A stretch of 59,321 bases of DNA, taken from positions 1-59,321 of IMG/VR virus record IMGVR_UViG_3300022719_000028. One strand, written 5' to 3'. The position numbers and the translations under genes were made by a program. This document shows, one piece after another, positions 1 through 46,473 of this stretch; positions within the stretch are counted from its first letter, which is position 1; each line of letters starts with the position of its first letter. The stretch comes from a virus. Below the pieces are notes generated by a model, which was not told the DNA's origin, made no database searches, and saw only the letters and a list, made by a program, of their open reading frames with translations.

Positions 1-2
1 GC

Positions 3-293
3 GGCGGCGGAACCACCACGACCACGACCACGACAACGACAACGACAACCACGACAACAACGACAACGACAACTTCAACTTCAAGCGGCGGCGGAAGCGG
101 AAGCGGAAGCGGCGGCGGAACCACCACGACCACGACCACGACAACGACAAGTTCAACATCGGGCGGCGGCGGAACCACAACAACCACCACAACCACAACA
201 ACAACTTCAACAACATCAGGCGGCGGAAGTTCAAGTTCAAGTTCAACAACGACAAGTTCAACATCAGGCGGCGGATCTCCAACGCTACCATAA
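3..293 (+). CDS. C-terminal end of tail-tip/host-specificity protein (3' part of the ORF that leaves the window at 59321)
   Basis: Frame +3 is open from the first bases (GGG, poly-T, STSS, GGGSGSGSGGG, poly-T ... SPTLP). Stop TAA 291-293. Nt 12-137 are identical to nt 59196-59321 in the same codon phase. Confidence 0.7.
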   Translation, partial: GGGTTTTTTTTTTTTTTTTTTTTTSTSSGGGSGSGSGGGTTTTTTTTTTSSTSGGGGTTTTTTTTTTTSTTSGGGSSSSSSTTTSSTSGGGSPTLP

Positions 294-320: not shown

Positions 321-1823
321 ATGGAGTTTTATTTGAGAGTTACCGGGCAAAAAGGCGATGCAACTTATGTGGGCGAATGCGTTCAAAAGTTTCATGAAAC
401 GAACGGGCTGGAACCGTTGGAAGTTGATGAAGCTTTTTCGAAAGCGATGGACGAATACGGCGAAGTTCGATTGATCATCAGCCGGGAAAGAATCGCGGGC
501 ATGATTACGGTTGCGCATTACGGGCAACCAAAAGAGAACATCGGCCGCATTCGGTTTCTTTGGGTTGATGAAGCGTTTCGCGGTCAAGGCTTGGCGTATA
601 ACGCGATTCTTCACATTATGCGCGGTTATCCCTTCAAAAATTGGGTTGCCGATACGGGGCAAAATGAAGCGGCACGGAACCTATTCAAAAAGCATGGGTT
701 CGAATCGTTTGATGAATCGCCGGATATGATGATTCGGAAGATTGACGAAGATCCGAATTTGACTTGCGTTCATCGCGGCGAACCGGTTGCAAACATCTAT
801 TGCAAACCATGCAAATCGAAAACAGGCCGGGGCCGAATGGTAACGGTTTTCGGTTGCGAACTTCACGAACATTGCACGTTGAACAATGAAATGGTTCGGT
901 ATAACAAAAAGCGTTCAACCGCATGTTCAACTTGCGAAGATCGGCAAGAGGTAAAACGCGATTTTCGTTTAGATATCGGCATGGCTTGTTTCGACGATTA
1001 CGAAGGCGTTTGGTTTACGATTCAGGCGATGCGGCTGGAAGCGCGGGCAAGAAACATTCCGGCCGATATCCGATTCATCATCATTGACAATCATCCGGTT
1101 TCGGCGCATGGGCGGCTTCTGAATGAATTCGCCGATCAATGTGAAGACGTTCGTTATGTGGCTTATACGGATCGGCAAGGAACATCCGGGCCGCGCGATG
1201 AAGTTTTCAAACGGTCGGATGCCGATGCCGTTGTTTGCGTTGATTCGCATATTTTGCTTTGGCCGGGAAGCTTGGCGGCGCTGGTTGAATACTTTGTTGA
1301 AAATCCGGAATCAAAAGATTTGGTTCAAGGCTTATTGCTTTGGGATAATTTGATTCCGGATCATGGCGCAACGCATATGGATCCGGTTTCTTGGGATGCG
1401 AATATGTGGGGGAAGTGGGCGCATGATGAACGCGGGGCGAAGCTTGGCGGCGAACCGTTTGATATTCCGATGCAAGGGTTATGGTTGTTCGGATGCCGGC
1501 GCGAAGCTTGGCTTGGCTTCAACGAATATCAACGCGGCTTCGGAAGTGAAGAAGGATACATTCACGAAAAGTTTCGACAAGCGGGCCGGCGAACTTTGAT
1601 GTTGCCTTCCGTTCGCGGCGTTCATAAATTCGGAAAGCCGGAAGGCGTAAAGTATCCGAACAACTTGCCGGATATTTGCCGGAACTATGTTATCAGTCAT
1701 TACGAACTTGGATTGCCGATGGAACCAATTCAAAAACATTTCGTTGATGAACTGAACTTGCCAATTGATATGTTTGAACTTTTCATTTCGGAAGCCAAAA
1801 GGATCTACAATGCCAAAAGTTAG
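321..1823 (+). CDS. GNAT N-acetyltransferase / Cys-rich linker / GT-A (family 2-like) glycosyltransferase fusion protein
   Basis: N-term RIRFLWVDEAFRGQGLA...LFKKHGF (GNAT motif A). Cys-rich segment CVHR..CKPCKS..CELHEHC..CSTC. C-term IRFIIIDNHP, VVCVDSH (DxH) and GFGSEEGYIHEKFRQAG...P..RGVHKF typical of GT-A enzymes. GAAAGGG RBS upstream. Confidence 0.75.
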   Translation: MEFYLRVTGQKGDATYVGECVQKFHETNGLEPLEVDEAFSKAMDEYGEVRLIISRERIAGMITVAHYGQPKENIGRIRFLWVDEAFRGQGLAYNAILHIMRGYPFKNWVADTGQNEAARNLFKKHGFESFDESPDMMIRKIDEDPNLTCVHRGEPVANIYCKPCKSKTGRGRMVTVFGCELHEHCTLNNEMVRYNKKRSTACSTCEDRQEVKRDFRLDIGMACFDDYEGVWFTIQAMRLEARARNIPADIRFIIIDNHPVSAHGRLLNEFADQCEDVRYVAYTDRQGTSGPRDEVFKRSDADAVVCVDSHILLWPGSLAALVEYFVENPESKDLVQGLLLWDNLIPDHGATHMDPVSWDANMWGKWAHDERGAKLGGEPFDIPMQGLWLFGCRREAWLGFNEYQRGFGSEEGYIHEKFRQAGRRTLMLPSVRGVHKFGKPEGVKYPNNLPDICRNYVISHYELGLPMEPIQKHFVDELNLPIDMFELFISEAKRIYNAKS

Positions 1824-2592
1824 TTGCCTATGCCCAACGTTCAGACGGCCGAAAGCCGTTGCGAATGCGGTTGCCTGTTTTTTGATGCAAGATTTTGAGG
1901 ATTCCGAATTGATCGTTTTCGATGATGAAGGCGATTTCATTCCGGGAGTTATCGCGGGCCGCGTAAAAGTTGTTTCGATTCCGTTTCGGTTTCGTTCGCT
2001 TCCGGAAAAGTTCAATGCGTGCGCCGGGCTGGCAAGCGGCGATTCTGAATTTCTAATCGTTTGGGAAGATGATGATGTGTATCTTCCAACGCATATCAAA
2101 AATCATGTTGACGTTTTGAGTTCAACGGCTGACATTTCAGTTACCGGAAAACTCTACGATGAAAAAGGCGATGCCGGAAACATTCGCGTTCGCGACAATA
2201 CGATTTCGTTTCATTCGGGTTGGGCATACCGGCGCGATTTCTTCGATTTGATTGATGGTTATCGAATCACAAAGGCGCTGAACTTCGATCAACAGACATT
2301 CAACAAATTCATTGAAAACGGCGCGGGGTTGGATTCAACGCCGGAAGCTTCGCATGTTTATACTTGGCTGACTTCCGGTTATACGAACGGATCCGCATTG
2401 CATGGGGAAAAGGCCGATTCGGGCGAATGGTGGGAAGCGGCCGGCCGGCTGGATTACAACGACAAGCCGGAAGGGCCGATCAAACTTGAACCGAAACTTT
2501 CGGAACAATCTGAAACAATCTTTTCCGAGTTGTTCCCGAAACATCTGGAAAAATTTCAGAATAAAAATAAAAAAAGTGAATTCAGTTATTGA
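1810..2592 (+). CDS. family-2 (GT-A) glycosyltransferase
   Basis: VSCLCPTFRRPKAV...SELIVFDDEGD and WEDDDVY (DxD). ATG 1810 is preferred to 1765 because it abuts the end of the upstream gene. Confidence 0.75.
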   Translation: MPKVSCLCPTFRRPKAVANAVACFLMQDFEDSELIVFDDEGDFIPGVIAGRVKVVSIPFRFRSLPEKFNACAGLASGDSEFLIVWEDDDVYLPTHIKNHVDVLSSTADISVTGKLYDEKGDAGNIRVRDNTISFHSGWAYRRDFFDLIDGYRITKALNFDQQTFNKFIENGAGLDSTPEASHVYTWLTSGYTNGSALHGEKADSGEWWEAAGRLDYNDKPEGPIKLEPKLSEQSETIFSELFPKHLEKFQNKNKKSEFSY

Positions 2593-2938: not shown

Positions 2939-3955
2939 ATGAAGATCAAACAAAATTCAACCGACATTCCGAACAACATCATTCGCAAGGCGTGCGCGTT
3001 CGTTGCGGGCGAACTGGAAAATTTCAGTTTGAAAGATGTTCGCGTTCTGAAAGTCAAGAACACAAAGCGGCGATTCACCGGTTACGCTTATTATGATGGG
3101 CATGAAGTTGTTATTCGTATCGGGCCGGCAAATCATTTCCCTGTTGAAAGCAAACGACTCGGCGTGAAATTCAGAGTTGAATCGCGCGTTGAAGGATTGG
3201 TTGCAATCATCGCGCATGAATTCGGTCACGTTTGGCAAGGCAAGAAACATCAAACAAGCCGGCGGCCCGGAACTTCGCAAGAGGTTGAACGGCAATGCGA
3301 ACGATTTGAAAAATTGATCCTGAAAGCATTCCGCGAACGCTCGGAAGAATTCCTTGAAGCTTGGGGCATCGGCCCGGATTGCAAACCAAAGGCCGAACCG
3401 GAAGCGCCGGTTTCTGATATCGTTGCCGAACGGGCGGCGAATGTTGAATCAAAGGTTGCCGAATGGGAAGCCGAGATTGTGAAACGCGAACGGGCGTTGA
3501 AGCGGGCAAAGAAAACGTTGACGAAATGGAAAGCGAAACGCCGATACTACCAAAAGAAACTTTCGGAACCGGGCCGGCAACTTGCGGCGAAGGGAAGCAA
3601 ACCGCGAAAACTGAAACCGGAAACGGTTTTGAAAAACAAGATCGCAAAGTTCATTCGGCTTTACCTGCGCGACCGATACGGCATTCAATCCGGAACGCAT
3701 GAACTTTCTTTTTCCGAGTTCATCAACCGGGAAGGCGAACCATGTTTGACGCGGCCCGCGCCGGATGTTGTTGAAGATCCGTTCGTTGATTTCTTTGAAT
3801 GGAAGGATATGAAAAAGCTGGTTGCGCTGGGCGATGTTCTGGAAGTTCACGCATACAATCGACGAACCGGCGAACGCGATGGAATGGGCGAAGATGTTCC
3901 GATCCCTGAAACCGAAGAAAAGCTTGAACAAGAAATTGAAAGGTTTGCGAAATGA
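2939..3955 (+). CDS. SprT-like HExxH zinc-metallopeptidase-like protein with charged coiled-coil C-terminal half
   Basis: RFTGYAYYDGHEVVIRIG ... LVAIIAHEFGHVWQ (HExxH). RBS GAAAGGCAAGGCAAG-ATG. Confidence 0.5.
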   Translation: MKIKQNSTDIPNNIIRKACAFVAGELENFSLKDVRVLKVKNTKRRFTGYAYYDGHEVVIRIGPANHFPVESKRLGVKFRVESRVEGLVAIIAHEFGHVWQGKKHQTSRRPGTSQEVERQCERFEKLILKAFRERSEEFLEAWGIGPDCKPKAEPEAPVSDIVAERAANVESKVAEWEAEIVKRERALKRAKKTLTKWKAKRRYYQKKLSEPGRQLAAKGSKPRKLKPETVLKNKIAKFIRLYLRDRYGIQSGTHELSFSEFINREGEPCLTRPAPDVVEDPFVDFFEWKDMKKLVALGDVLEVHAYNRRTGERDGMGEDVPIPETEEKLEQEIERFAK

Positions 3956-4200
3956 CGAGGCCACCGAAGAAACGATTGGCGGCGGAAAAACTTTTTGAAA
4001 CGTTGGCAACCGGGCCAATATCAATCGACGATATAACAAAAGGCCGTTCGCATTCCGAACCGGAACGGCTTCGCGAGAATTACGATCTTTGGTTTCGTTC
4101 TTGGGTACGCAATCAATTGATTGATTTGATTCCGCAACTATCGAAAGAAGCGGCGGAACGGATCGAAGAAAAACTTTCAGAAAAACAAAAAAAAGAGTGA
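3952..4200 (+). CDS. hypothetical protein (82 aa)
   Basis: ATGA start/stop overlap with the upstream gene. Its stop lies inside the cassette-2 dyad. Confidence 0.5.
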   Translation: MTRPPKKRLAAEKLFETLATGPISIDDITKGRSHSEPERLRENYDLWFRSWVRNQLIDLIPQLSKEAAERIEEKLSEKQKKE

Positions 4201-4298
4201 TATCAGAATTGACCGAACGCCGATAAGTGATATCATATAAACATCGACGGAAGGCAAGGCCGTCAAACATCACTCGAAACTTTGAAAGGCACGGAATT
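4197..4298 (+). promoter_or_regulatory. early promoter/operator/leader cassette, copy 2
   Basis: TGATATCA 4198-4205. -35 TTGACC 4209-4214. TATCAT 4231-4236 (TGATATCA 4228-4235). Hairpin GACGG/CCGTC 4246-4264 with loop AAGGCAAGG. GAAAGGCACGGAAT before ATG 4299. Confidence 0.7.
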
Positions 4299-4535
4299 AT
4301 GACAGTCACAAAAACAGTTGATATCAAAACCGATTTGATTGAAAGCTTGGTTGAGCTTCGCGAGAAGATGGAAGCCGGCAAAACAACGGATGCCGGATAC
4401 ATTCTTTCGGAAGTTCTCGATGCGGTTTCATCATCATCGGTTTCGGTTACTTGCGAACGGGTTGTTCGCGACGATAAGCAACCGGGCGCGTTGCCGGAAG
4501 GCGAAACCAACTACGCGGCATACAACATCGACTGA
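4299..4535 (+). CDS. hypothetical early protein (78 aa)
   Basis: An internal ATG of ORF 4227-4535 is chosen because the upstream part of that ORF is the promoter/leader. Canonical RBS spacing. Terminator follows. Confidence 0.6.
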   Translation: MTVTKTVDIKTDLIESLVELREKMEAGKTTDAGYILSEVLDAVSSSSVSVTCERVVRDDKQPGALPEGETNYAAYNID

Positions 4536-6005: not shown

Positions 6006-6087
6006 GAACGCGAAATTTCGATTCTGACGGCTTCGGGCGGTTCGGCGTAGGTTGAACCGTTTCGGGCCGTCAAAACGGCACGGCGCA

Positions 6088-6120
6088 ACGCTCCGGGATT
6101 TCTCCGGGGCGTTTTTCTTT
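6088..6120 (+). terminator. intrinsic terminator
   Basis: ACGCTCCGG 6088-6096 / CCGGGGCGT 6104-6112 (one G-U pair), then TTTTTCTTT. Confidence 0.65.
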
Positions 6121-6685: not shown

Positions 6686-6892
6686 ATGAACCAACAAAGG
6701 CCGTTTTTGTATGGGAAAGTTAAGCGGGTTGATTGCTTTTGTGGAAAAACAACAATCCGGACAGTTAGAGGAAAAAGAGAAATAGAAATTTGCGACGGTT
6801 GCAAGCGCGACGTTCAACCGCATGAAATTTCGATTGACGATACCGGGCGAATGCTTCGGGAGTTGGACAAAAAAAACAAAGGCGCGGAATGA
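6686..6892 (+). CDS. small zinc-ribbon protein (68 aa)
   Basis: CFCG ... CDGC pairs. AAAGGA RBS. ATGA overlap with the next gene. Confidence 0.5.
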   Translation: MNQQRPFLYGKVKRVDCFCGKTTIRTVRGKREIEICDGCKRDVQPHEISIDDTGRMLRELDKKNKGAE

Positions 6893-7437
6893 ATCATCTG
6901 CCGGGATTGCGGAAAAAGTTCAAAACGATTTATGCGGATCCACCGTGGCAGTTCAACAACCGAACGGGCAAGGTAGCGCCGGAACATTCGCGGCTTCACC
7001 GTTATTCAACAATGACGTTCAACGAAATTTGCGAAATGCCGGTTGCGAATCATGCGGAAGAAAACGCGCATTTGTATCTTTGGATTCCGAACGCATTGTT
7101 GCCGGAAGGCTTGACCGTTCTTGACGAATGGGGATTTCGTTACGTTTCAAATCTTGTTTGGTTGAAGACTCGAAAAGACGGGCAACCGGACGGGCGCGGC
7201 GTTGGTTTTTACTTCCGGAATACAACCGAAATTTTATTGTTTGGAGTTCGCGGGAAATTGCGAACGCTTCAACCGGGGCGTTCTCAAGTCAACGCGATAA
7301 TGAAAGCGAAGCGGGAACATTCGCGCAAGCCGGATGAATTCTATGATTTGATTGAATCATGTTCGCCGGGGCCGTTTCTGGAATTGTTCGCGCGACACAA
7401 ACGGAAAGGCTGGCGGCAATGGGGCAACGAAATTTGA
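6889..7437 (+). CDS. MT-A70-family N6-adenine DNA methyltransferase
   Basis: IYADPPWQF (DPPW at 6937-6948), LYLW, EHSRKPDEFY. Confidence 0.85.
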   Translation: MNHLPGLRKKFKTIYADPPWQFNNRTGKVAPEHSRLHRYSTMTFNEICEMPVANHAEENAHLYLWIPNALLPEGLTVLDEWGFRYVSNLVWLKTRKDGQPDGRGVGFYFRNTTEILLFGVRGKLRTLQPGRSQVNAIMKAKREHSRKPDEFYDLIESCSPGPFLELFARHKRKGWRQWGNEI

Positions 7438-7976
7438 TCTTGCCGGAAGGGTTTGAATACACCGAAGCCGGGCATGTTGTAACGGAAATCGGTTTGCATA
7501 AACTTCAACTTGCGGCGAAAGCCGGCGTTGCAAGGCAAATCGAATCATATGCCAGAAAATCAAAACCGGCATACGGGGCCGATCATTCTTTGAATTGGCA
7601 AATCGCAATTGAAGGCGTTATTGGCGAATGGATTATTTCAAGAATGTTGGGCATCGAATGGCATGGCAAAGGCGTTCTTGGCGGCCCGGATGTTGGCGAA
7701 GATCTGGAAGTGAGAACATCAGCATACAACAACGGCCGTTTGATACTTCACCCGTTCGACGGGAAACGCGGCGATGATCCGAACCGAATCTTTTGGCTTG
7801 TTACAGGATCGCAACAAACATATTTTGTTCGGGGATGGATTCGGGCGGCTGACGGTCAACGTCAAGAATTCTGGACGAATCCAACGGGCAAAAAGGGGCG
7901 CGATGCGTTCTTTGTTCCGCAAAGCGAATTAAACTTGCCGGGAACTTTTGAGAGGGAAAAAGCAAATGCAATATGA
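7419..7976 (+). CDS. PD-(D/E)XK nuclease-like protein
   Basis: GGPDVGEDLEVRTS resembles the D...ExK/R core of restriction-fold/VRR-NUC nucleases. Overlaps the methyltransferase by 19 nt. Start is ambiguous (7359 or 7419). Confidence 0.4.
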   Translation: MGQRNLILPEGFEYTEAGHVVTEIGLHKLQLAAKAGVARQIESYARKSKPAYGADHSLNWQIAIEGVIGEWIISRMLGIEWHGKGVLGGPDVGEDLEVRTSAYNNGRLILHPFDGKRGDDPNRIFWLVTGSQQTYFVRGWIRAADGQRQEFWTNPTGKKGRDAFFVPQSELNLPGTFEREKANAI

Positions 7977-8148
7977 TCCGAATGAACCGTATCCGATGGA
8001 AGTGATTGATGCGGCCGTGAAACTTCGAAATGAAAAAGGTTGGGGCATGAAAAAGATTGCCCGCAAACTCAAAGTTGATGAAAGCAAATTGCGGCATGAT
8101 TATATGGAATTATTGATTCGCCAACGGGCGGCGGTTCAAGAAAAATGA
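7966..8148 (+). CDS. small helix-turn-helix protein
   Basis: GWGMKKIARKLKVDESKLRH resembles a resolvase/Hin-type HTH. Start 7948 or 7966. Confidence 0.45.
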   Translation: MQYDPNEPYPMEVIDAAVKLRNEKGWGMKKIARKLKVDESKLRHDYMELLIRQRAAVQEK

Positions 8149-8174
8149 TTTGAACTTTTTGAAAGGCTGACACA

Positions 8175-9023
8175 ATGGCAAATCCTCTAAAATGGCACGG
8201 CGGCAAAACGTATCTTGCCGGCGAAATCATCAAACGCTTTCCCGCGCATACGCGCTACGTTGAACCTTACTTCGGCGGCGGGGCCGTTCTCTTTGCAAAG
8301 CCGTTCGAAGGCGTTGCCGAGTATGCGAACGATCTGGATCTTGAGTTGATGAATTTTTGGCGCGTTCTGCAAAACGAATTTCTTGGGCCGTTGTTGATTC
8401 GGCGGTTGAACCTTGAACCGTTTTCAAAGCCGGGGTTCACGGTTGCAAATGCAAAATCGCAATATGCGGATCCGAATTCTTCGCCGGTTTTACGGGCGGC
8501 GAATTTCTTTGTTCGATACCGTCAAAGCCGGCAAGGCTTGGGGAAGGATTTCGCAACGCCAACATCGCGAACGCGGCGCGGAATGAACGAACAAGTTTCG
8601 GCATGGCTTTCGGCGGTTGATGGATTACCGGAAGCGGCGGAACGATTGCGACGGGTTGAAGTTCGCAACGAATCCGCGATTGATTGCATTACCGAACTCG
8701 ATTCGCCGGAAGCTTTGTTCTATCTGGATCCGCCATATCTTCCAGAAACTCGGAAAGCAAAAAAGACATACGGCGAATTTGAAGCAACGGTTGAACATCA
8801 TGAATTGCTTTTGAAAACGTTGGCGGGTATCAAAGGCAAATTCATTCTTTCCGGTTATCCTTCAACGATGTATCGAAAAGCGGCGAAGGCGAACAAATGG
8901 AAATGCGACAAAATAGAAATCGACAACAAAGCAAGTTCGGCGAAGAAAAAAGAAATCAAAACCGAATGCCTTTGGTTTAATTTCAGCCGGCGGGAATTCG
9001 GGAAGGGATTGAAAGCGGAATGA
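8175..9023 (+). CDS. Dam-type (D12 class) N6-adenine DNA methyltransferase
   Basis: KWHGGKTYLAGEI..YVEPYFGGGAVLF (SAM pocket) and FYLDPPY (DPPY at 8727-8738). RBS GAAAGGCTGACACA-ATG. Confidence 0.9.
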   Translation: MANPLKWHGGKTYLAGEIIKRFPAHTRYVEPYFGGGAVLFAKPFEGVAEYANDLDLELMNFWRVLQNEFLGPLLIRRLNLEPFSKPGFTVANAKSQYADPNSSPVLRAANFFVRYRQSRQGLGKDFATPTSRTRRGMNEQVSAWLSAVDGLPEAAERLRRVEVRNESAIDCITELDSPEALFYLDPPYLPETRKAKKTYGEFEATVEHHELLLKTLAGIKGKFILSGYPSTMYRKAAKANKWKCDKIEIDNKASSAKKKEIKTECLWFNFSRREFGKGLKAE

Positions 9024-9778
9024 GAATTTTGATAGTCGGCGCGCCGAAAACAGGAACAACGGCATTGATGGATTCAATCGCCGGAAGTTTAGGTTTCAAA
9101 TGGGAGTTCGAAAAAACCGATTGCGGTTCGGATAATCTTGTGAGAAAAATTCTATTTCATCAATTTGCGGATCGGATGATTGATGAATTTGATCGAATCA
9201 TTTTCACTTGCCGGGATCCTCGCGATAGGTTGATTTCGGCGTTTGTTTATTTCTTGGCGTTCGGGCCGGCAAACATGAAGGGGCCGTTCATCGCGCTTGA
9301 TCTTTTGCAGCGGAAAGAATTCGAACGCGAACTTCCGTTTCATATTTTGTTGCGGGAAGCTTCGCGGCATTGCTTTTTTCATTACTCGTTTTCTGAATTT
9401 GTTGATCGGGATTCGCTGGCGATGATTCGCCGGCATCGCGACAATCCGAAAGTTTGCGTTTTTCATTATCACGATTTAATCAAAACAAACTTTGAAACCG
9501 TTTCGGAGTTGATCGGAAAAAAGATCAAACCGTTTTCCGGGCATTGGTCGCCTATTGCATACCGGGCCGGCGGTTGTGAGTATTGGCGGCGATGGTTCAC
9601 GGAATCGGATCTTGATTATTTTACCGATATCGCGAACGATTGGGCGCGAACTTTTGGATTCGGTTTGGATTGGCGGCTTTCGGATGAAGGCGCGAACGCG
9701 GCGGAAGGATCTGAATGGTTCAAGATCGGCGCGAACAAATGGCGAAAGATAAACGGCGTTCCCGAACTGGAATTTTGA
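9020..9778 (+). CDS. sulfotransferase-family protein
   Basis: GAPKTGTTAL (5'-PSB loop, PKxGTT) and FTCRDPRDRLISAF (3'-PB, RDPxDRxxS). Confidence 0.7.
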   Translation: MRILIVGAPKTGTTALMDSIAGSLGFKWEFEKTDCGSDNLVRKILFHQFADRMIDEFDRIIFTCRDPRDRLISAFVYFLAFGPANMKGPFIALDLLQRKEFERELPFHILLREASRHCFFHYSFSEFVDRDSLAMIRRHRDNPKVCVFHYHDLIKTNFETVSELIGKKIKPFSGHWSPIAYRAGGCEYWRRWFTESDLDYFTDIANDWARTFGFGLDWRLSDEGANAAEGSEWFKIGANKWRKINGVPELEF

Positions 9779-9779
9779 A

Positions 9780-10568
9780 ATGAAAAAAGCGGCTTGCGTT
9801 TTCACGATTGTTCAAGATGAAAGTTTTTTCTTGCGGCTTTGGTTTGAACATTATCTTCAACATTTCGACGCAACCGATCTTTTTGTTATCGATCATAATT
9901 CCATCGAACCGGTTCAAGTTCCGGAAGGCGTGAACGTTATTCGGCTGGAATATGAAACATCGTGGGCGCATGATTGGCTTTGCGAGACGGTTGAAAACTT
10001 CAATCGTTTTTTGCTTGGAACTTATGAAACCGTTTTGTTCGCGGAAGCCGATGAATACTATATCGCGAATCCTCTTTTGACTTCGGCCGCAAAGCTTCCG
10101 GAAGTATTGAACGCGGAACATATCGCAAAGAAACCGGTTTTGCGTTCTCAGGGATTTGATATCGTTCAGATGGTCAACGAAGATCCGCCGGTCGATCCTT
10201 CAAAGCCGATGTTGGGGCAACGTCAATTGATGTTCGCTTCCGATGCCTATTGTAAGCCGTGCGCGGTTCGCGTTCCCGTTCGATGGAATTACGGCTTTCA
10301 TACTTTGAGATCTCGCGATATGGTTACGTTCGTTCCCGAATTGGTTCTTTGTCATTTTCATTACTTTGATGAAGACATTTTGAACGAACGGAACGCATTG
10401 CGGCTTGAACGCAAATGGTGCGAAAAAGCTTTATACGATAACCTCGGAAAACAAAACCGAAACAGTTGCACGGAAGTTCGGAAGGAATTTTTGGAATGGA
10501 AAAAAAAGCGAACAATCATGCGGCCGATTCCGGACGAATGGAAATCGTTGATTCCCGCGTTGCGATAG
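9780..10568 (+). CDS. GT-A glycosyltransferase (Glyco_tranf_2_4 / GT92-like)
   Basis: ACVFTIVQDESFFLRLWFEHYLQHFDATDLFVIDHNS and EADEYY motifs. Confidence 0.5.
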   Translation: MKKAACVFTIVQDESFFLRLWFEHYLQHFDATDLFVIDHNSIEPVQVPEGVNVIRLEYETSWAHDWLCETVENFNRFLLGTYETVLFAEADEYYIANPLLTSAAKLPEVLNAEHIAKKPVLRSQGFDIVQMVNEDPPVDPSKPMLGQRQLMFASDAYCKPCAVRVPVRWNYGFHTLRSRDMVTFVPELVLCHFHYFDEDILNERNALRLERKWCEKALYDNLGKQNRNSCTEVRKEFLEWKKKRTIMRPIPDEWKSLIPALR

Positions 10569-11566
10569 TTGTTCCGTCGAATCGCGTTGATGAAATGTGG
10601 AAGTTCAAAAGCGAATGGGAAAGCGAACACGCAACAATCTTTTGCGTTTGGGATAAGGAAACCAAGCCGGGCCGGTTTACAGATTCGAAAACATTCCGTT
10701 CAATTTCGCATCGCGAAATCAAAGAACAATACGGCGAAGTTTCAAAAATCTTTTCAACCAATGACGGCGGGATCCGCATCGCTGGATTCTTGGAAGCGGC
10801 GCGGGCCGGGGCCGAAGTGATTATTGTTTTAGATGATGATACGCGGCCGCATGGTAGCGTTGCCGATTTCATTGAAGGGCATTGCCAAAACTTACGCGGC
10901 GGATTCCCGCGTTGGATTTCGAGCGCTCCGGGAATTCATCAACGCGGCTTGCCGTATCTTCCGGATATAAAAATTCAAAGGCCCGTTCTTTTGTCCGTTG
11001 GATTATGGCAAGGCGTTCCGGATGTTGACACAATCGAAACGTTCGCGGCATTGCGCCGGAAAATATCGCTTCATTACATACCACCAAAGGGAACGCGCAT
11101 CGTTCCGGCCGGGCAACTGGTAACGCTTTCGGGCATGAACTTCGCTTTCCCTGTTGAGTTTCTACCGGCCGCGTTTTGGCCGAAGCAATCGTTGGAAACG
11201 TTTCAAAGATTTGACGACATTTGGGGCGGCTTCTCAATGCAACTAATCATTGAACAGTTCGGCGGAATTGTGACAACGGGCGAACCGTTCGTTTTGCACG
11301 AACGAAGATCCAGCGCATACGCGAACTTGAAAAAAGAAACGCGCGGCATCATTGCGCATGATGAAGTTTCGCAATTGATCGACGGTTTCGAGAGTCAAGA
11401 AACATCGATTGCAAGAACGGCGTTCGCGTTCGTTGAACATCTGAGAAGAAAAGCCGGAATGATGGATTCGGATGTTGCCGAATACGTCAAGCAATGGGCA
11501 ACGGACTTTGAAGCATGGCTTGAACTATGCAAAAAACTTTTCCAAAAACTTTCCAAAAAAGAATGA
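10538..11566 (+). CDS. GT75 / reversibly-glycosylated-polypeptide (RGP)-like protein
   Basis: VAIVVPSNRVDEMWKFKSEWESEH..IFCVWD and IIVLDDDTRP resemble the RGP/UDP-arabinopyranose-mutase family N-terminus and DDD motif. Start 10496 or 10538. Confidence 0.5.
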   Translation: MEIVDSRVAIVVPSNRVDEMWKFKSEWESEHATIFCVWDKETKPGRFTDSKTFRSISHREIKEQYGEVSKIFSTNDGGIRIAGFLEAARAGAEVIIVLDDDTRPHGSVADFIEGHCQNLRGGFPRWISSAPGIHQRGLPYLPDIKIQRPVLLSVGLWQGVPDVDTIETFAALRRKISLHYIPPKGTRIVPAGQLVTLSGMNFAFPVEFLPAAFWPKQSLETFQRFDDIWGGFSMQLIIEQFGGIVTTGEPFVLHERRSSAYANLKKETRGIIAHDEVSQLIDGFESQETSIARTAFAFVEHLRRKAGMMDSDVAEYVKQWATDFEAWLELCKKLFQKLSKKE

Positions 11567-11649
11567 TATCACATTGACGGGCGGCCGATAAGTGATATCA
11601 TACAGTTGTTGAAGGCAAGGCAACAAAACAAAACGAAAGGCACGGAATT
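11563..11649 (+). promoter_or_regulatory. early promoter/operator/leader cassette, copy 3
   Basis: TGATATCA 11564-11571. TTGACG 11574-11579. TATCAT 11596-11601. Hairpin TTGTTG/CAACAA 11606-11626 with the same AAGGCAAGG loop. GAAAGGCACGGAAT before ATG 11650. Confidence 0.7.
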
Positions 11650-11877
11650 ATGTTTTATATGGTTGGCGGCAAAGTTCCCGTTCAGTACGAAACCGGATAC
11701 AAAGGTTTTCAATTCAAAGTTCTTGAAGTTGTTACAACCGAATCGGCTTCACTGGAAGGAATGAAAGCATACGTTGAACTCGGATACAAAGGCGTTTGCC
11801 GACGCATCGCAACCGCAAACGAATTCTTCGAATTCAGCGAAAACGGCGGCGAAAACTTAACTTTCCAAAAAGTTTGA
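11650..11877 (+). CDS. hypothetical early protein (75 aa)
   Basis: Sits between cassette promoters 3 and 4. Canonical RBS. Confidence 0.6.
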   Translation: MFYMVGGKVPVQYETGYKGFQFKVLEVVTTESASLEGMKAYVELGYKGVCRRIATANEFFEFSENGGENLTFQKV

Positions 11878-11883
11878 AAAAAA

Positions 11884-11971
11884 GTGATATCAGGATTGAC
11901 GGCGGGCCGATAAGTGATATCATATAAACATCTGGCAAACGGCAAGGCAAACAAACGAAAGGCACGGAAAG
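11884..11971 (+). promoter_or_regulatory. early promoter/operator/leader cassette, copy 4
   Basis: TGATATCA 11885-11892. TTGACG 11896-11901. TATCAT 11918-11923. The leader contains GGCAAGGCAA 11941-11950 but has no clean hairpin. Confidence 0.65.
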
Positions 11972-12280
11972 ATGAAAACGGCATTCAGCGAAACTCAAGA
12001 GTTCAAAAAAGTTCAGGCGCTCAAAGCGGCAATTGATTTCGTTCGCGACGAAACGAAAGAAATAACTTCGGACGGTTCGGATATGTCGCCGGAACTTTGC
12101 GTTGTTGAATTCAAAGTTTGTTTCGCTGGCGATGCAAATTCATTTTGCGTTGATTGGTTTCAAGGCGCTGTCACAATGGATCGCGGATTTGAAGGCCGGC
12201 CAACGATTCGCATGTTCGTTCAAACGACACGTTCGGGCGGCTTCTCAGTCAAACGCGAACGCATTAAATCAATGGCATGA
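11972..12280 (+). CDS. hypothetical early protein (102 aa)
   Basis: GAAAGGCACGGAAAG-ATG RBS. Confidence 0.6.
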   Translation: MKTAFSETQEFKKVQALKAAIDFVRDETKEITSDGSDMSPELCVVEFKVCFAGDANSFCVDWFQGAVTMDRGFEGRPTIRMFVQTTRSGGFSVKRERIKSMA

Positions 12281-12291
12281 AAGGCGCGGCA

Positions 12292-12585
12292 ATGACGGTT
12301 GAACTCAACAATCTTTTTGAATTTGAACTTCCGGAATCAATCACAATCAAAACAGGCAAGGCAATGAAACTTTCAAAAGAACAATACAAAGAAACGCTTT
12401 CGGGTTTGGGCGATGCGTTGAACTCTTTTCGTTCGGCGCGTGAACATGAACGCGAAGCGGAAGCGAAGCGGGTTCAATTCTGGATTGATGAATTGGAACC
12501 GGCGGAAATGAAACGCAAAGATCAACGTTTGATCGAAGCGGCAACTCGGAAAATCCGGGAAGCGCGAAAAGCAATTTCAAACTGA
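12292..12585 (+). CDS. hypothetical protein (97 aa, charged/helical)
   Basis: GAAAGGCGCGGCA-ATG places the start at 12292 rather than 12277. Confidence 0.55.
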   Translation: MTVELNNLFEFELPESITIKTGKAMKLSKEQYKETLSGLGDALNSFRSAREHEREAEAKRVQFWIDELEPAEMKRKDQRLIEAATRKIREARKAISN

Positions 12586-12598
12586 AAGGCACGGAAAG

Positions 12599-12940
12599 AT
12601 GATTGACAGAAACGCAAGAATCGTTCGGGCGATTGAAAAAAAGATCGTTCGAAACTTACTGGAAACGATGAAGGCCGAACATGGTTATTGGTTTCGGGTT
12701 TATGATCCGGAACCGGCAACAACGGCAACGCAAAACGTTGATGATGCGATGAACGCGATTTTTGCCGTTGACTCAGCAACCGTTCGTTTTACTGACAATC
12801 CCGAAAGCGGGTATCGCGGTTCGGTTTTGTTGGTTCTCGGAAATGACGGTTGGGATGTTATCTGCGATTATTCGGTTCGGCTTGAAGATGAAATGAAGCC
12901 GATCAACGAATTCGCCGACAACATCGAACAACATATTTGA
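12599..12940 (+). CDS. hypothetical protein (113 aa)
   Basis: GAAAGGCACGGAAAG-ATG RBS. Terminator follows. Confidence 0.6.
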   Translation: MIDRNARIVRAIEKKIVRNLLETMKAEHGYWFRVYDPEPATTATQNVDDAMNAIFAVDSATVRFTDNPESGYRGSVLLVLGNDGWDVICDYSVRLEDEMKPINEFADNIEQHI

Positions 12941-12947
12941 ACGAACG

Positions 12948-12975
12948 CGGCCCGGTTCGCCGGGCCGTTCTTTTA
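12948..12975 (+). terminator. intrinsic terminator
   Basis: CGGCCCGG 12948-12955, TTCG loop, CCGGGCCG 12960-12967, then TTCTTTT. Confidence 0.75.
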
Positions 12976-13006
12976 CTCTCGAATTTATTTTGAAAGGCTG
13001 GCAAAG

Positions 13007-13447
13007 ATGGACGGGCAAAACGGAACGCGAAAAACGCCGAACGTTATGACACAAGAAAACGCGATTGCAATGGCGGCGGCGGCGCTGGCGAATCAATCCG
13101 AAATCCGAAATCGCGCTTGGTTGAACGCGGCGGAAATCGGAAACTTCATTGCCGGTAAAGCGGGGATTGAACCGGATGATTTCAGACCGGCGGCGCATCA
13201 TGTTCACAAAATCTTGAAAGGCGTGAACATCGAATTCACGGCGTTAAACGTCAAGCAAACGGGCGGCGTTGAAACTCGCAAGCGAAACGCGGTTGCATCG
13301 GAACATCTGGATCTTCTCGCGGGGATGTTCAAGGCGTTGCCGAAGCAACAAAAAGAACAGGCCGATTTGTATTTTCGCGAACGCAACGGCGGGAAAGGCG
13401 TTGCCGAATTTCTCGGCATTTCTCAAGATACGCTTTTTCCGAATTGA
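13007..13447 (+). CDS. hypothetical protein (146 aa), possible C-terminal HTH
   Basis: GAAAGGCTGGCAAAG-ATG RBS. GKGVAEFLGISQDTLF looks HTH-like. Confidence 0.55.
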   Translation: MDGQNGTRKTPNVMTQENAIAMAAAALANQSEIRNRAWLNAAEIGNFIAGKAGIEPDDFRPAAHHVHKILKGVNIEFTALNVKQTGGVETRKRNAVASEHLDLLAGMFKALPKQQKEQADLYFRERNGGKGVAEFLGISQDTLFPN

Positions 13448-13638: not shown

Positions 13639-13746
13639 GTGAATTCACATTGACGGGCGGCCGATAAGTGATATCATTGGCGGCGTTGACAACAGGCGCG
13701 GAAGCCGAATTTCTTTATATGAATCTTTTACGAAAGGCGCGATGCA
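13639..13746 (+). promoter_or_regulatory. early promoter/operator cassette, copy 5 (drives the RHH-csrA-recombination operon)
   Basis: TGAATTCA 13640-13647. TTGACG 13650-13655. TATCAT 13672-13677 (TGATATCA 13669-13676). The leader differs from the other copies (GGCGCGGAAGCC). Confidence 0.65.
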
Positions 13747-14001: not shown

Positions 14002-14048
14002 GCGTTTCACTTTGAATTGATGGATTAGTTTTTTTGAAAGGGAATTCA

Positions 14049-14330
14049 ATGTTAGTTTTATCTCGAAAAGCGAATGAACGAATTTTGATCGGCGATGATG
14101 TTGAAATTGTTGTTGTTGAAGTTCGCGGCAAGCGGGTTCGGCTTGGCATCAAAGCGCCGGGCGAAACTCGGATCATTCGCGCAGAATTAAAGGCGGCTGA
14201 CAATGATGGAAACAATGACGAACTCGGAATTCAACCATTTGAAAAAGACGTTGAAGAAAACCGACAACGCGACAAAAACGATCTTCAACATGCGGAAGAT
14301 GATCGAACAGGCGTTGCCGGAAGATCTTGA
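14049..14330 (+). CDS. csrA: CsrA/RsmA-family RNA-binding translational regulator with acidic C-terminal extension
   Basis: MLVLSRKANERILIGDDVEIVVVEVRGKRVRLGIKAPGETRIIRAEL aligns residue by residue with canonical CsrA (E. coli MLILTRRVGETLMIGDEV..VRIGVNAPKEV.VHREEI). Confidence 0.85.
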   Translation: MLVLSRKANERILIGDDVEIVVVEVRGKRVRLGIKAPGETRIIRAELKAADNDGNNDELGIQPFEKDVEENRQRDKNDLQHAEDDRTGVAGRS

Positions 14331-16203: not shown

Positions 16204-17211
16204 ATGATTGATTCAAAGATTGCAGTTGAAGGGCCGAAGGCGCATTCTCCCGAATGGTACGATATCCGGTTTTTCGATCCGGATCGGGAAAGGCCGGTTG
16301 TGATAACGGCAAGCGAATCGGCGGCGGCTTGCGGCGCTTCGCCGTATCAAACCGCGCTTGAACTCTACATGACGAAGCGGCGCGAAATGGAAGCTTGGGA
16401 ACCGGACGACGAACAAAAAGAGCGCATGCGATTCGGTCAACGGATGGAATCGGTTGTTATCGACGAATACAAAAATCAAAACGATTGCGAAGTTGAAACC
16501 GATTTGCCGTTGTATCTTTCAAATCGATTTGAATTCTTGGGCGCAACTCCGGATGCGTTCGCGCGGAAAGATGAAGACGTTTGGGAACTGGAAGCCAAAA
16601 ACTCGAATTGGCGAATGTTCGATCAAAGCGGCGAAGATGAAAACAAATACGGCGAAGCCGGAACGGATCAAGTTCCCGCGTATATGATGTTTCAAGCGCA
16701 ACAACAAATGATCGTTCTTGGTTTGAACCGGGTTGATTTTCCCGTTCTGCAAAACGGGAATCGAATGTTGATTTACCGGGTTGAAGCTTATGAAGCTTTG
16801 CAAAATAAAATCATTGAATGCGGGAAAGAACTTGCCGAACGCATCATCAACGGCGAACCGCCGGATCCGGATTACACGCATGACGGAACCGCGAAATTGC
16901 TTCAAGAAATGTACGGCGTTTCGGTCGGAACCGTTATTGAACTCGATGTTGATGCCGAAGAACTTTGGTTTCGTCAAATTGAGATTGCCGAGAAGATCAA
17001 AGAACTTGAAGCGGAAAAAAAGGCAATCAAAAACAAGATGTTGGATATGATGGGCGATGCTGAGATTGCCCGTTTTCCGGGGCGAAATTTCAAATTGAAG
17101 CGAACCGCTATTGATGATTCGTATTGGACGGAACAAGATGTTCAAAAGATTGTGATCGGAGATATAAAGCGGCGCGGACATATCCGCATCACAAAATCAA
17201 AAGACAAATAA
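16204..17211 (+). CDS. YqaJ / lambda-Exo-type recombination exonuclease
   Basis: ITASESAAACGASPYQTALELYMTKR (YqaJ N-terminal signature). GATPDAF ... WELEAKNS (PD-ExK). Confidence 0.8.
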   Translation: MIDSKIAVEGPKAHSPEWYDIRFFDPDRERPVVITASESAAACGASPYQTALELYMTKRREMEAWEPDDEQKERMRFGQRMESVVIDEYKNQNDCEVETDLPLYLSNRFEFLGATPDAFARKDEDVWELEAKNSNWRMFDQSGEDENKYGEAGTDQVPAYMMFQAQQQMIVLGLNRVDFPVLQNGNRMLIYRVEAYEALQNKIIECGKELAERIINGEPPDPDYTHDGTAKLLQEMYGVSVGTVIELDVDAEELWFRQIEIAEKIKELEAEKKAIKNKMLDMMGDAEIARFPGRNFKLKRTAIDDSYWTEQDVQKIVIGDIKRRGHIRITKSKDK

Positions 17212-17220
17212 ACATTTCTT

Positions 17221-17280
17221 CGCGTTGCCCGGTTCGGATTATCGTTTTCCGTCATTGAAGCCGGGCGGCGCGTTTCTTTA
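17221..17280 (+). terminator. probable intrinsic terminator
   Basis: CGCGTTGCCCGG 17221-17232 / CCGGGCGGCGCG 17261-17272 (two G-U pairs), then TTTCTTT. Confidence 0.45.
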
Positions 17281-17302
17281 CTCGAAAGCGAAAGGCTGAC
17301 AA

Positions 17303-18454
17303 ATGGCAAGCGGAAATCAAATGCTGACACAAGATCAAATCGACGCGCAACGCGGAATGAGTTTGCGCAAATGGTTGAACAAGCCGGAAGTTCTTGAAGA
17401 TCTCGAATCTTCATTGACGGGTTGGATTTCAGCCGAACAATTCAAATCGCAAATTTTAGTTGATATCAATTCGGAAACTCTCGCGCGTTGTTCTCCCGAA
17501 TCAAAGTTTGCGGCGGTTCTCAAATGCGCAACGCTTCAACTGTTACCGTCATTGAATCACGTTGCGTTGATTCCTTCCAAAGTTCGCGAAGACGGCGTTG
17601 TTGTCAAAACCGAAGTTCGCGTTACGGTTCAATGGCAAGGCTATCAAGCTTTGATGCTTCGGCATCCGGACGTTAAAGATGTGAACGCTTACTTGGTTCA
17701 CGAATCGGATTCGTACAAATACGATCAATTAAATAAACGAATCGTTGAACATTCTTTTGATCCGTTGGATCCGCAACGAACTTTCAACAACTTCAATGAC
17801 GTTCGCGGCGGGTATGTAGTTGTTGAGTACAAAGATCCGAACCGGGCTGATAAACATCATTTCGTTACATGCGAAACAATCCGCAAGGCGCGGGGATGCG
17901 CAGAAACCGGCACGATTTGGGAAGCATGGTTTTTCGAAATGTGTATGAAAACTCTCTATCGCAACGCATACGCGCGGCGGGTTGTTCCGATGGATCCAAT
18001 GCTTGCGCGACGAATGGAAGAATTGAACCGGCATGAAGACGAACAACTCGGCAACGATCCGAAGCGAATCATTGATTCAACCGCAACCGCGATTGATCGA
18101 AAGCCGGAAAAACAGAAACCGCAAAGCCGGGCCGCGCAATTGGCTTCGGACGATTCGCCGGAATCTTCGCCGGTGGAACCGGAACCGAAAGCAACGGAAC
18201 CGGAACCGATGAACGAACCGGAACCGGAACCGGAACTTCCAGAAACGCCAACGGATGAACCAAGGCGCGAAACATCGGACGAACGCGGGCATTTCCAACG
18301 GCTGAAAGAAAAGGCCGAATGCGCAACAACCGTGAAAGAAATCGATTCGCTGAATGATGAAGCCGGCGAATTGGTTTCAAGCGGGGAACTGACGAACGGC
18401 GAATTCGGAATTCTGGTACAGTTGTTTTCGGAACTTGCAATGAAACTCGATTGA
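17303..18454 (+). CDS. recT: RecT-family single-strand annealing protein with Pro/Glu-rich C-terminal region
   Basis: SPESKFAAVLKCATLQLLPSLNHVALIP ... VQWQGYQALMLRH ... TLYRNAYARR. Adjacent to the YqaJ exonuclease. Confidence 0.8.
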   Translation: MASGNQMLTQDQIDAQRGMSLRKWLNKPEVLEDLESSLTGWISAEQFKSQILVDINSETLARCSPESKFAAVLKCATLQLLPSLNHVALIPSKVREDGVVVKTEVRVTVQWQGYQALMLRHPDVKDVNAYLVHESDSYKYDQLNKRIVEHSFDPLDPQRTFNNFNDVRGGYVVVEYKDPNRADKHHFVTCETIRKARGCAETGTIWEAWFFEMCMKTLYRNAYARRVVPMDPMLARRMEELNRHEDEQLGNDPKRIIDSTATAIDRKPEKQKPQSRAAQLASDDSPESSPVEPEPKATEPEPMNEPEPEPELPETPTDEPRRETSDERGHFQRLKEKAECATTVKEIDSLNDEAGELVSSGELTNGEFGILVQLFSELAMKLD

Positions 18455-23786: not shown

Positions 23787-24683
23787 GTGTCAGTTGAGCA
23801 AATCATCAAAGAAACGGATGCCGAAGTTTCGCTTTTTGATATGGTTCGGTTTTTATACCGATATGGATATTTCAACGGAATCATTGACGGTTTGAAAAGC
23901 AAATCGTTTGATGATGTTGTGAAGTTCGTTCGGAAGCAAATGCCCGAATTCAAAGAGGGAATCAAACGCTTTCAATCGTTCTACAATTTGACGGTTGATG
24001 CCGATCCGGGGCCGCAAACGCAACGGGCGATGATGGAACCGCGATGCGGTTGCCCGGATATCATACCGGAAGGCGCGGAAGCGGCGGGCCGTTGCCGTTG
24101 GCCGATTGAAAAGATGCAAGGCGTTTCGTATTCCTGCAACTTTGATGAACTCAATATTTCAACGGCCGAAGCAACCAAGATCTTTCAAGATGCGGCGGAA
24201 GCTTGGAACAAAGTTTGTAACATTCAATTGCGCTACGTCAATCAATACGGAAGCGCGAACATCAATGCGGAAACCGCGCGGATTGATTCACGCGGCGGAA
24301 CGTTGGCTTGGTCATATTTGCCTTGTCAGAACTCGGCAACGCAACGGCTTCAACAACGATATGACACGCGGGAAAATTGGAACTATCGGTTTTTGTTGGC
24401 CGTTGCCATTCACGAACTAGGGCATGCGCTCGGCTGGAATCATGCGAACACGCGGGCAAGTATTCTTTGGCCGTCATATCAAAGCAACATTTGGGAACCG
24501 CAAAAATTTGATATCGCGCGGGCCGAAGATACTTACGGCAAGCCGATCATTCCGGAACCGAAGCCGGATCCGAAACCGGATGATCCGAACGTTCCAAGCG
24601 CGGAAGGCATCATCAACTTTAGAATCAACGGGCGAACGTTCCCGATGAAACTTGTTTCTGTTACTGATAAAGGGAGTCTTTGA
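23787..24683 (+). CDS. matrixin (M10, MMP-like) zinc metalloprotease with PG-binding-like prodomain and cysteine switch
   Basis: GTG start after GAAAGGCGCGATT. PGPQTQRAMMEPRCGCPD (cysteine switch, 24039-24059). HELGHALGWNH (HExxHxxGxxH, 24411-24443). SILWPSY at the Met-turn position. Confidence 0.8.
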   Translation: MSVEQIIKETDAEVSLFDMVRFLYRYGYFNGIIDGLKSKSFDDVVKFVRKQMPEFKEGIKRFQSFYNLTVDADPGPQTQRAMMEPRCGCPDIIPEGAEAAGRCRWPIEKMQGVSYSCNFDELNISTAEATKIFQDAAEAWNKVCNIQLRYVNQYGSANINAETARIDSRGGTLAWSYLPCQNSATQRLQQRYDTRENWNYRFLLAVAIHELGHALGWNHANTRASILWPSYQSNIWEPQKFDIARAEDTYGKPIIPEPKPDPKPDDPNVPSAEGIINFRINGRTFPMKLVSVTDKGSL

Positions 24684-24684
24684 A

Positions 24685-46452: not shown

Positions 46453-46473
46453 ATGTTTCGGAGGATCCTAGAA

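Follow-up and report, generated by a model that had tools for sequence, protein, structure and literature searches.

Phages are already known to encode glycosylation, both of the virion, as in mycobacteriophages, and for serotype conversion. In glycosyltransferase family 75 (GT75), which includes the reversibly glycosylated polypeptides (RGPs) of plants, only two bacterial enzymes have been characterised (PMC9937993). The mutase activity of the bacterial enzyme MtdL needs D109–D111, H287, R159, R257, D195 and D260. Members of the family autoglycosylate an arginine, some plant members are without mutase activity, and the inactive plant member AtRGP5 has lost the equivalents of MtdL R257 and H287 (PMC9937993). 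Here we describe three adjacent genes, encoding a sulfotransferase, a glycosyltransferase and a GT75/RGP-family protein, on a viral contig of 59,321 nucleotides (IMG/VR record IMGVR_UViG_3300022719_000028, positions 1 to 59,321; called the window here). The window is a single 59.3-kb contig of a tailed, siphovirus-like phage, with nearly all of its genes on the plus strand. From the sequence comparisons we are confident that the trio is a glycan-tailoring module, predicted to combine the supply of a nucleoside diphosphate (NDP)-furanose, furanosyl transfer and sulfation. Its product is best read as a sulfated furanoside.

Enzymes of the cassette

The three open reading frames (ORFs) of the trio, proposed in an initial annotation made from the sequence, were confirmed, all on the plus strand (Table 1). 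The third is listed from a TTG codon at 10466, and the ATG at 10538, which gives the N-terminus MEIVDSRVAIVVPSNR, is the best fit to the N-termini of homologues. The initial annotation had recognised this protein as RGP-like by the motifs IVVPSNRVDEMW and LDDDTRP, both of which are present. The match to the Pfam RGP profile (PF03214) reaches 74.4 bits, where the cut-off is 23.8, and covers profile positions 52–339 of 342. Searched against the PDB, the family profile finds MtdL (1e-34) and the rice UAM (9e-28). The structural model (mean predicted local distance difference test (pLDDT) 82, predicted template modelling score (pTM) 0.86) aligns with MtdL (7xps) at a template modelling (TM) score of 0.76 and with OsUAM2 (8cid) at 0.74; after these, the best fold matches are to generic GT-A enzymes, at TM scores of 0.44 or less. 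Profile and structure comparison thus both uphold the family assignment, and the catalytic residues are all kept.

By alignment, D99–D101, H254, R136, R224, D162 and D227 of the window protein correspond to MtdL D109–D111, H287, R159, R257, D195 and D260. D99-D100-D101 (the DXD motif) and H254, the equivalents of the Mn2+-coordinating residues, are invariant in the GT75 family alignment. R136, in the sequence QRGLPY, is also invariant and aligns with RGFPF of MtdL, which holds the autoglycosylated arginine (OsUAM1 R158/MtdL R159). D162 (in PDVD) and D227 (in RFDDIW) are invariant, and R224 in the latter motif is nearly so. The sugar-site motif is GMN, which we take to be the plant form, in place of SQN in MtdL. 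The alignment leaves a one-residue uncertainty around MtdL S86/D87, and we do not assign the enzyme to uridine diphosphate (UDP) or guanosine diphosphate (GDP) sugars. The third protein is predicted, from these residues and from the model, to be an active NDP-pyranose-to-furanose mutase. Homologues of it occur at no fewer than 122 IMG/VR loci; only five deposited phage records are matched, none of them annotated as GT75.

The middle protein had been called a GT-A enzyme with a resemblance to GT92. On its own it scores 14.8 bits on Glyco_tranf_2_4 (PF13704), below the cut-off of 27.5, and 47 of 51 aligned relatives (25–38% identity) match this family, the best at 6.4e-14. Through these relatives we assign the protein to the Glyco_tranf_2_4 family, and it is probably a GT-A enzyme, as first called. 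To describe it as GT92-like is loose: the window protein has no match to GT92 (PF01697), and 3 of the 51 relatives match it weakly (best 3.6e-4). A word-indexed search had returned the query alone, and we rejected the orphan status that this implied when an exhaustive homology search recovered 1483 representative relatives. Across the family D91-E92 (in AEADEY), K159, H174 and H192 are invariant and H194 is nearly so. Sequence and profile searches of the PDB with this protein returned nothing useful. In galactofuranose systems, the mutase that makes the thermodynamically disfavoured donor sits beside a dedicated transferase. By analogy with this adjacency, we infer that the middle protein would act as a furanosyltransferase.

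The first protein of the trio is a soluble, 3'-phosphoadenosine-5'-phosphosulfate (PAPS)-dependent sulfotransferase by profile, motifs and predicted fold. Residues 52–164 match Pfam Sulfotransfer_1 (PF00685; 32.3 bits, cut-off 22), and the N-terminal loop gives a below-threshold match to Sulfotransfer_3. Both PAPS-binding signatures named in the initial annotation are there, GAPKTGTT at residues 7–14 (5'-phosphosulfate-binding loop) and RDPRDRLIS at residues 65–73 (3'-phosphate-binding). In an alignment with six relatives, K10, G12, T13, T14 and RDPRDR.IS are invariant, and the invariant motifs of the family read MRILI.G..K.GTTA, RDPRDR.IS and a C-terminal W..WF. The last of these belongs to a third PAPS motif (G..W[RK].WF), seen as GGCEYWRRWFT in the window protein, with W189, W192 and F193 invariant, and as RKGEPGDWKNWF in the relative P0014. 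We assume that GxxGxW(K/R)xxF is the canonical C-terminal cofactor motif of the cytosolic SULTs, to which the P0014 sequence comes close. The 50 best PDB fold matches of the AlphaFold model (pLDDT 80) are all sulfotransferases (probability 1.00, at moderate TM scores of 0.36–0.50). A P-loop NTPase misread as a sulfotransferase, raised as a possibility in the initial annotation, does not agree with the Pfam score above threshold, the third PAPS motif and the uniform fold matches. The catalytic base is His in cytosolic SULTs and Glu in heparan-sulfate sulfotransferases. The family alignment has no invariant His, and the invariant E31 may, on sequence grounds, be the catalytic base.

Sulfotransferases had been described in the initial annotation as rare in phages. 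This applies to the window's subfamily, for which a tblastn search of 50,697 deposited phage records gave no match, but not to sulfotransferases at large, since annotated ones are known in cyanophages, phiRSL1 and giant viruses. On a phage-like contig (L004, 5703–7092) two different sulfotransferase-like genes stand in tandem, after RNR-like and NUDIX genes. The genes 3' of the L004 sulfotransferase were considered as glycosyltransferase and GT75 partners and rejected, one of them being the second sulfotransferase-like protein.

In the pathway that we propose, the GT75 enzyme would convert a host NDP-pyranose into a scarce NDP-furanose by the mechanism of MtdL and the plant UDP-arabinopyranose mutases, with Mn2+ and an arginine-sugar intermediate. 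The adjacent Glyco_tranf_2_4 enzyme would then add the furanose residue from this donor, and the sulfotransferase would add sulfate from host PAPS.

Table 1. Features of the window discussed in the text
Feature	Position	Strand	Basis or remarks
PAPS-dependent sulfotransferase, 252 aa, soluble	9020–9778	+	Pfam, motifs, fold; no transmembrane segment
Probable GT-A glycosyltransferase, Glyco_tranf_2_4 family, 262 aa	9780–10568	+	PF13704 matches of relatives; invariant residues
GT75/RGP-family NDP-sugar pyranose-furanose mutase (predicted), 342 aa	10538–11566	+	alternative starts TTG 10466, ATG 10496
Tail protein directly after tape measure: N-terminal 730 aa and start of poly-Thr/Ser/Gly mucin-like C-terminus	56781–59321	+	runs over contig end; candidate glycan acceptor
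Continuation and end of poly-Thr tail	1–293	+	positions 1–29 repeat 59293–59321
GNAT acetyltransferase-GT2 fusion, directly after poly-Thr protein	321–1823	+	Acetyltransf_1 34.8 bits; Glycos_transf_2 31.5 bits
Second GT2 glycosyltransferase	1810–2592	+	Glycos_transf_2 34 bits; ORF listed from TTG 1765
Methyltransf_24 (sugar O-methyltransferase-like) protein	33398–34039	+	PF13578 26.7 bits, cut-off 26.3
MT-A70-family DNA methyltransferase	6889–7437	+	PF05063 106 bits; phrog_359 match; same gene string
D12-class (Dam-like) N6-adenine DNA methyltransferase	8175–9023	+	PF02086 77.2 bits; phrog_56 2.7e-64
Strong terminator-like hairpin	6087–6113	+	intergenic; 11-bp stem, 7 GC pairs, T tract
28-nt promoter-like element TTGACGGGCGGCCGATAAGTGATATCAT, five copies	11574–11601, 11896–11923, 13650–13677, 26681–26708, 27284–27311	+	2 mismatches or fewer
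RecE-like and RecT-like genes	16204–18454		
Large terminase	35530–37305		
Portal	39485–40993		
Major head protein	46453–48156		
Tape measure	53293–56784		

The gene pair and the trio in other genomes

The initial annotation had placed the three genes side by side; the comparison goes beyond this and finds pair and trio to be conserved modules in other phages and in bacteria. A Glyco_tranf_2_4 relative lies directly 5' of the GT75 gene on the same strand at 10 of 83 RGP-bearing loci (80 of them viral). The same pair is present at 19 of 78 bacterial genomic loci, from Acidobacteriota, Solirubrobacterales, other Actinomycetes, Planctomycetota and a Bifidobacterium metagenome-assembled genome (MAG). 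The bacterial-looking contig L002 also has it, with a glycosyltransferase 35% identical to that of the window (E 2e-38). In one phage lineage (L029, L054–56, L058, L063 and L069) a sulfotransferase-like gene of a different subfamily stands beside the pair, and its profile matches sulfotransferases alone in the PDB. Profile comparison of the two sulfotransferase subfamilies was marginal (hhalign probability 25%), and for this reason they are treated as non-orthologous. In Acidobacteriota (L095–L097), which hold the closest genomic GT75 relatives, the gene order is Methyltransf_24, SDR epimerase, Sulfotransfer_3 (40 bits), Glyco_tranf_2_4 and GT75. The recruitment of two unrelated sulfotransferase subfamilies to one pair argues that sulfation is part of the same pathway. 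Since the pair is conserved, and a different sulfotransferase joins it both in the phage lineage and in Acidobacteriota, we regard the trio as a functional module.

More generally, the GT75 genes of bacteria and of viral contigs usually lie in glycan islands with epimerases, glycosyltransferases and methyltransferases. At one Planctomycetota locus (L147, 5195–6418, a MAG) a phage-integrase-family gene is located just 5' of Methyltransf_24, Glyco_tranf_2_4 and GT75 genes, and the module there may be on a mobile island.

A sister phage (L089, IMGVR_UViG_3300017967_000079) is syntenic with the window, its MT-A70 and Dam proteins being 95% and 87% identical. After Dam (7947–9435) it carries a sulfotransferase 32% identical to that of the window and a different, weakly GT2-like ORF of 225 residues, and has neither a mutase nor a Glyco_tranf_2_4 gene. 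With different genes after Dam in the two phages, this slot is a variable cargo site; it keeps the pairing of sulfotransferase and glycosyltransferase and changes the sugar chemistry.

Candidate acceptor and alternative substrates

The initial annotation had offered three possible substrates: glycans on a poly-Thr tail protein, host envelope polysaccharide, and hypermodified DNA bases. Comparison supports the tail protein, which is encoded directly after the tape measure. Its gene runs over the contig end: the two ends share a 29-nt direct repeat that lies in the region coding for poly-Thr, and when they are joined the frame is preserved, giving an ORF of ~930 residues, of which the C-terminal ~230 are poly-Thr/Ser/Gly. 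The assembly probably broke in this repeat, the genome map being circular or permuted; two related IMG/VR contigs likewise end inside the tract. In the sister phage (L089/L091) the tail protein is 83% identical and has a contiguous Thr-rich tail of ~190 residues followed by a stop codon, so the tract is real.

Two GT2 genes follow the poly-Thr gene, the first fused to a GNAT acetyltransferase. The second GT2 protein is 81% identical in the sister phage and 29% identical to the product of a gene beside a sulfotransferase in an unrelated phage (L006). A Methyltransf_24 protein encoded elsewhere in the window is a possible further member of the toolkit; its family adjoins GT75 genes in viral loci, in the Acidobacteriota module and at a Planctomycetota locus. 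A Kyte-Doolittle scan of the six glycan enzymes found no transmembrane segment, and no flippase or transporter was seen, which fits a cytoplasmic protein substrate.

Related GT2 and sulfotransferase genes recur beside Thr-rich or tail proteins in other phages. L006 encodes a tail-module protein of 640 residues with long Thr-rich linkers, non-homologous to the window tail protein, and then a protein of 873 residues whose GT2 domain is homologous to that of the GNAT-GT2 fusion (E 4e-21) and another part of which resembles the window Methyltransf_24 protein. The next genes are a sulfotransferase of the window's subfamily and a convergent homologue of the second GT2. L090 has a member of the same sulfotransferase subfamily between two minor tail proteins, just 5' of the central tail fibre J. 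A GT2 relative follows a structural protein of 1286 residues with a T18 tract in L256/257, and in L258–260 a GT2 relative comes one to three genes after structural proteins of 1081–1202 residues that contain S/T-rich stretches and (TP)n repeats. The 80 viral GT75 loci served as a rough control, and in not one of them is there a Thr-rich ORF within 8 kb. L006 also encodes, on its minus strand, a long (421 residues) thymidylate-synthase homologue (11188–12453) and a dCTP deaminase (12482–13258), and a modified pyrimidine in the DNA of that phage is possible.

The acceptor of the furanose and sulfate would then be an O-glycan begun by the two GT2 enzymes on the mucin-like C-terminus of the tail protein, and the virion tail tip would bear a sulfated, possibly acetylated and methylated, glycan brush. 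We rank cytoplasmic O-glycan tailoring of the tail protein first, since related genes repeatedly accompany Thr-rich structural proteins and tail modules, the enzymes are soluble, and neither an integrase nor a membrane component was found among the ORFs scanned; we place it somewhat short of an even chance. Several observations weigh against it. The cassette lies ~9 kb from the tail genes, in the DNA-methyltransferase gene string and outside the late operon, and the other trio-bearing phage lineage has the trio among recombination genes, where no ORF up to 8 kb away is Thr-rich. In the sister phage the poly-Thr protein and both GT2 genes are retained without a mutase or Glyco_tranf_2_4 gene, so the cassette is dispensable and variable. 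Positions after tail genes are a classic site of host-conversion morons. The independent lineages are few (4 to 5), and the pathway would draw on PAPS and an NDP-sugar pool that we presume the host to provide. A fuller version, in which a sulfated furanose brush on the tail tip is made by a module shared with Acidobacteriota and other bacteria and has its composition swapped between sister phages through the post-Dam slot, we consider rather unlikely.

The main competing explanation is that the cassette modifies host envelope polysaccharide (O-antigen, capsule or exopolysaccharide) on the cytoplasmic side during infection. We regard this as possible, at a distinctly lower probability than the tail protein. 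The added sulfated furanose would alter the cell surface and so, we suggest tentatively, lead to superinfection exclusion, avoidance of re-adsorption by progeny, or serotype conversion. A cellular relative of the sulfotransferase adjoins Wzm/Wzt in an ABC-type O-antigen cluster with many glycosyltransferases, GT75 genes favour glycan islands, and the post-Dam slot differs between the sister phages as conversion cassettes do. The metagenomic loci of the sulfotransferase subfamily are heterogeneous: among 38 of at least 6 kb, GT2 relatives occur in 9 and Wzt relatives in 5, and none has a GT75, a Glyco_tranf_2_4 or a Thr-rich ORF. These contexts tell little about the phage target. What separates the two explanations is that no integrase was found among the ORFs scanned, that all the enzymes are soluble with no membrane component of the GtrA, GtrC or Oac type, and that an envelope target leaves the link of GT2 and sulfotransferase genes to Thr-rich structural proteins and tail modules unexplained. 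The envelope proposal of the initial annotation is still a serious contender.

Hypermodification of the phage DNA, with a glycosylated and sulfated base serving together with the two DNA methyltransferases as an anti-restriction system, would account for the tight linkage and probable co-transcription of the trio with the MT-A70 and Dam genes. It would also suit the position of the trio among recombination genes in the other phage lineage and the L004 sulfotransferase next to RNR-like and NUDIX genes. Yet among the ~45 window ORFs scanned with Pfam or PHROGs (several small ORFs lay outside the scan) there is no thymidylate-synthase-like hydroxymethylase, deoxynucleoside monophosphate kinase, DNA polymerase or base-modifying gene, the same outcome as in the initial annotation, which had seen no such enzyme. 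Moreover, the Acidobacteriota trio lies beside an epimerase and an O-methyltransferase, a sugar-pathway context. To our knowledge, the known DNA glycosyltransferases belong to other families, and we know of no sulfated DNA. With gene linkage as its main argument and no base-modifying gene among these ORFs, DNA is a very improbable substrate and was set aside. A different role for the GT75 protein is improbable too, although less so than a DNA substrate: it might glycosylate itself or the arginines of other proteins, or be an inactive scaffold of the AtRGP5 and OsUAM2 kind. The cassette would then act on something else in the cytoplasm, for example a host protein, lipid or small molecule. Arginine autoglycosylation and mutase-inactive plant members are on record in the family (PMC9937993), and the loop around R136 is modelled at low confidence (pLDDT below 50, residues 125–144). 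On the other side, the residues missing in AtRGP5 are retained in the window protein as R224 (nearly invariant) and H254 (invariant), and the conserved glycosyltransferase directly 5' suits a donor-supply role. We thus keep O-glycans of the tail protein as the preferred substrate and mutase activity as the preferred function of the GT75 protein.

Transcription signals and other genes of the contig

The initial annotation had taken the trio to be co-transcribed with the DNA methyltransferases. The stop codon of Dam runs into the start codon of the sulfotransferase gene in the sequence ATGA, the gap between sulfotransferase and glycosyltransferase is 1 nt, and the glycosyltransferase and RGP-like genes overlap by 31 nt (start at 10538), in agreement with the junctions described there. 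The MT-A70 gene and a DUF1643 gene lie upstream of the trio. The intergenic hairpin in front of this gene string is the probable upstream edge of the transcription unit, and a second strong intergenic terminator-like hairpin is found at 12947–12968; between the two there are weak ones only, at chance level. The first copy of a repeated 28-nt promoter-like element starts eight nucleotides past the stop of the RGP-like gene and begins the next unit. With no strong hairpin between the two and this element after the trio, co-transcription with the methyltransferases is plausible from the DNA itself. The element has the form TTGACG-16-TATCAT, with an extended -10 and GATATC palindromes, and shuffled sequences give an expectation of 0 copies. 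The five copies are probably a phage-specific promoter or operator set marking middle or early transcription units.

A nucleotide search of the cassette against deposited phages gave no match, so there is no close cultured relative among them; NCBIfam and PHROGs have no match for any trio protein. Between the two DNA methyltransferases lies a gene for 205 residues (7359–7976; phrog_18407, a family without functional annotation) that is apparently missing from the sister phage, and this is a second variable insertion point of the gene string. A phage CsrA homologue (14034–14330; PF02599, 75 bits) has similar small genes near GT75 loci in eight other viral contigs. An ORF of 338 residues (2939–3955, plus strand) has an HEFGH zinc-metalloprotease-like motif and no Pfam match. 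Its conservation in the sister phage (69% identity) marks it as a real gene, and the longer minus-strand ORFs at 2957–3295 and 3449–4510 are probably spurious. Further downstream, a matrixin-type (Peptidase_M10) metalloprotease with a peptidoglycan-binding domain (23787–24683), unusual for a phage lysis or structural gene, is directly followed by a CMAS-like S-adenosylmethionine methyltransferase (24652–25497).

Comparison with known systems

Phage sulfotransferases, as annotated genes, and viral GT75 genes, on metagenomic contigs, are already present in the databases, and no paper was found on viral or phage GT75 enzymes or on the trio. If the module works as proposed, sulfation and NDP-furanose supply would join the phage glycosylation repertoire, and the widespread, uncharacterised bacterial pair of Glyco_tranf_2_4 and GT75 would gain a function. 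Should the glycan sit on the tail tip, it would be relevant to the adhesion of phages to mucus, biofilm matrix or polysaccharide-rich hosts and to the evasion of recognition by virions, and the tail protein would become the first bacteriophage glycoprotein described as sulfated.

Virion glycosylation of the Che8/Corndog type in mycobacteriophages, attributed to Freeman et al. in 2023, reportedly uses cytoplasmic glycosyltransferases and O-methyltransferases, with Ser/Thr-rich C-terminal extensions as acceptors. The window likewise combines phage glycosyltransferases with a Ser/Thr-rich segment of a structural protein, a pattern seen again in L006, L257 and L258. Where the mycobacteriophages have a capsid or tail-tube subunit as acceptor, the candidate in the window belongs to the tail tip and has a far longer poly-Thr tract, and the toolkit of the window, known here from genes alone, adds a sulfotransferase, a putative NDP-furanose mutase and a GNAT domain. 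The serotype-conversion cassettes (gtrABC, Oac) are also glycan-modifying phage genes in a variable cargo slot. Their enzyme families are different from those of the window, which has no GtrA/GtrC-type membrane protein or acyltransferase_3 and no integrase that we could find; Pfam scans of the window gave no membrane flippase, membrane glycosyltransferase or acyltransferase family.

The bacterial GDP-L-galactose/fucose pyranose-furanose mutases MtdL and Hyg20 and the plant RGPs share the Pfam family and fold of the window GT75 protein. The DXD motif, the Mn2+-site His, the autoglycosylated Arg, the phosphate-binding Arg and the catalytic Asp of MtdL and the plant mutases are all kept, at only 18–19% identity in the structural alignment. 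The window protein differs in being phage-encoded and paired with a Glyco_tranf_2_4 enzyme and a sulfotransferase, whereas the described enzymes sit in an antibiotic cluster or in a plant cytosolic complex. Among deposited phages, the cultured cyanomyovirus Synechococcus phage S-T4 (NC_048049.1) encodes a GT75 homologue in gp110 (L254, 8923–9831), which is listed as a hypothetical protein; it matches the family profile with E 2.9e-23 and is 24% identical to the window protein. The gp110 gene belongs to a glycan island (gp104–gp119) that also has genes for epimerases, the heptose pathway, methyltransferases and glycosyltransferases, perhaps a hint that the donor is an NDP-heptofuranose or a similar sugar. 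An annotated sulfotransferase lies elsewhere in that genome, and gp110 has no adjacent Glyco_tranf_2_4 or sulfotransferase gene. The closest counterpart of the trio is that of the Acidobacteriota (Thermoanaerobaculia; L095–L097), where the sulfotransferase, Glyco_tranf_2_4 and GT75 genes have the same order on one strand and the GT75 protein is 35% identical. It differs from the window in its Sulfotransfer_3-type sulfotransferase, in having its own SDR epimerase and Methyltransf_24 genes, and in its chromosomal location.

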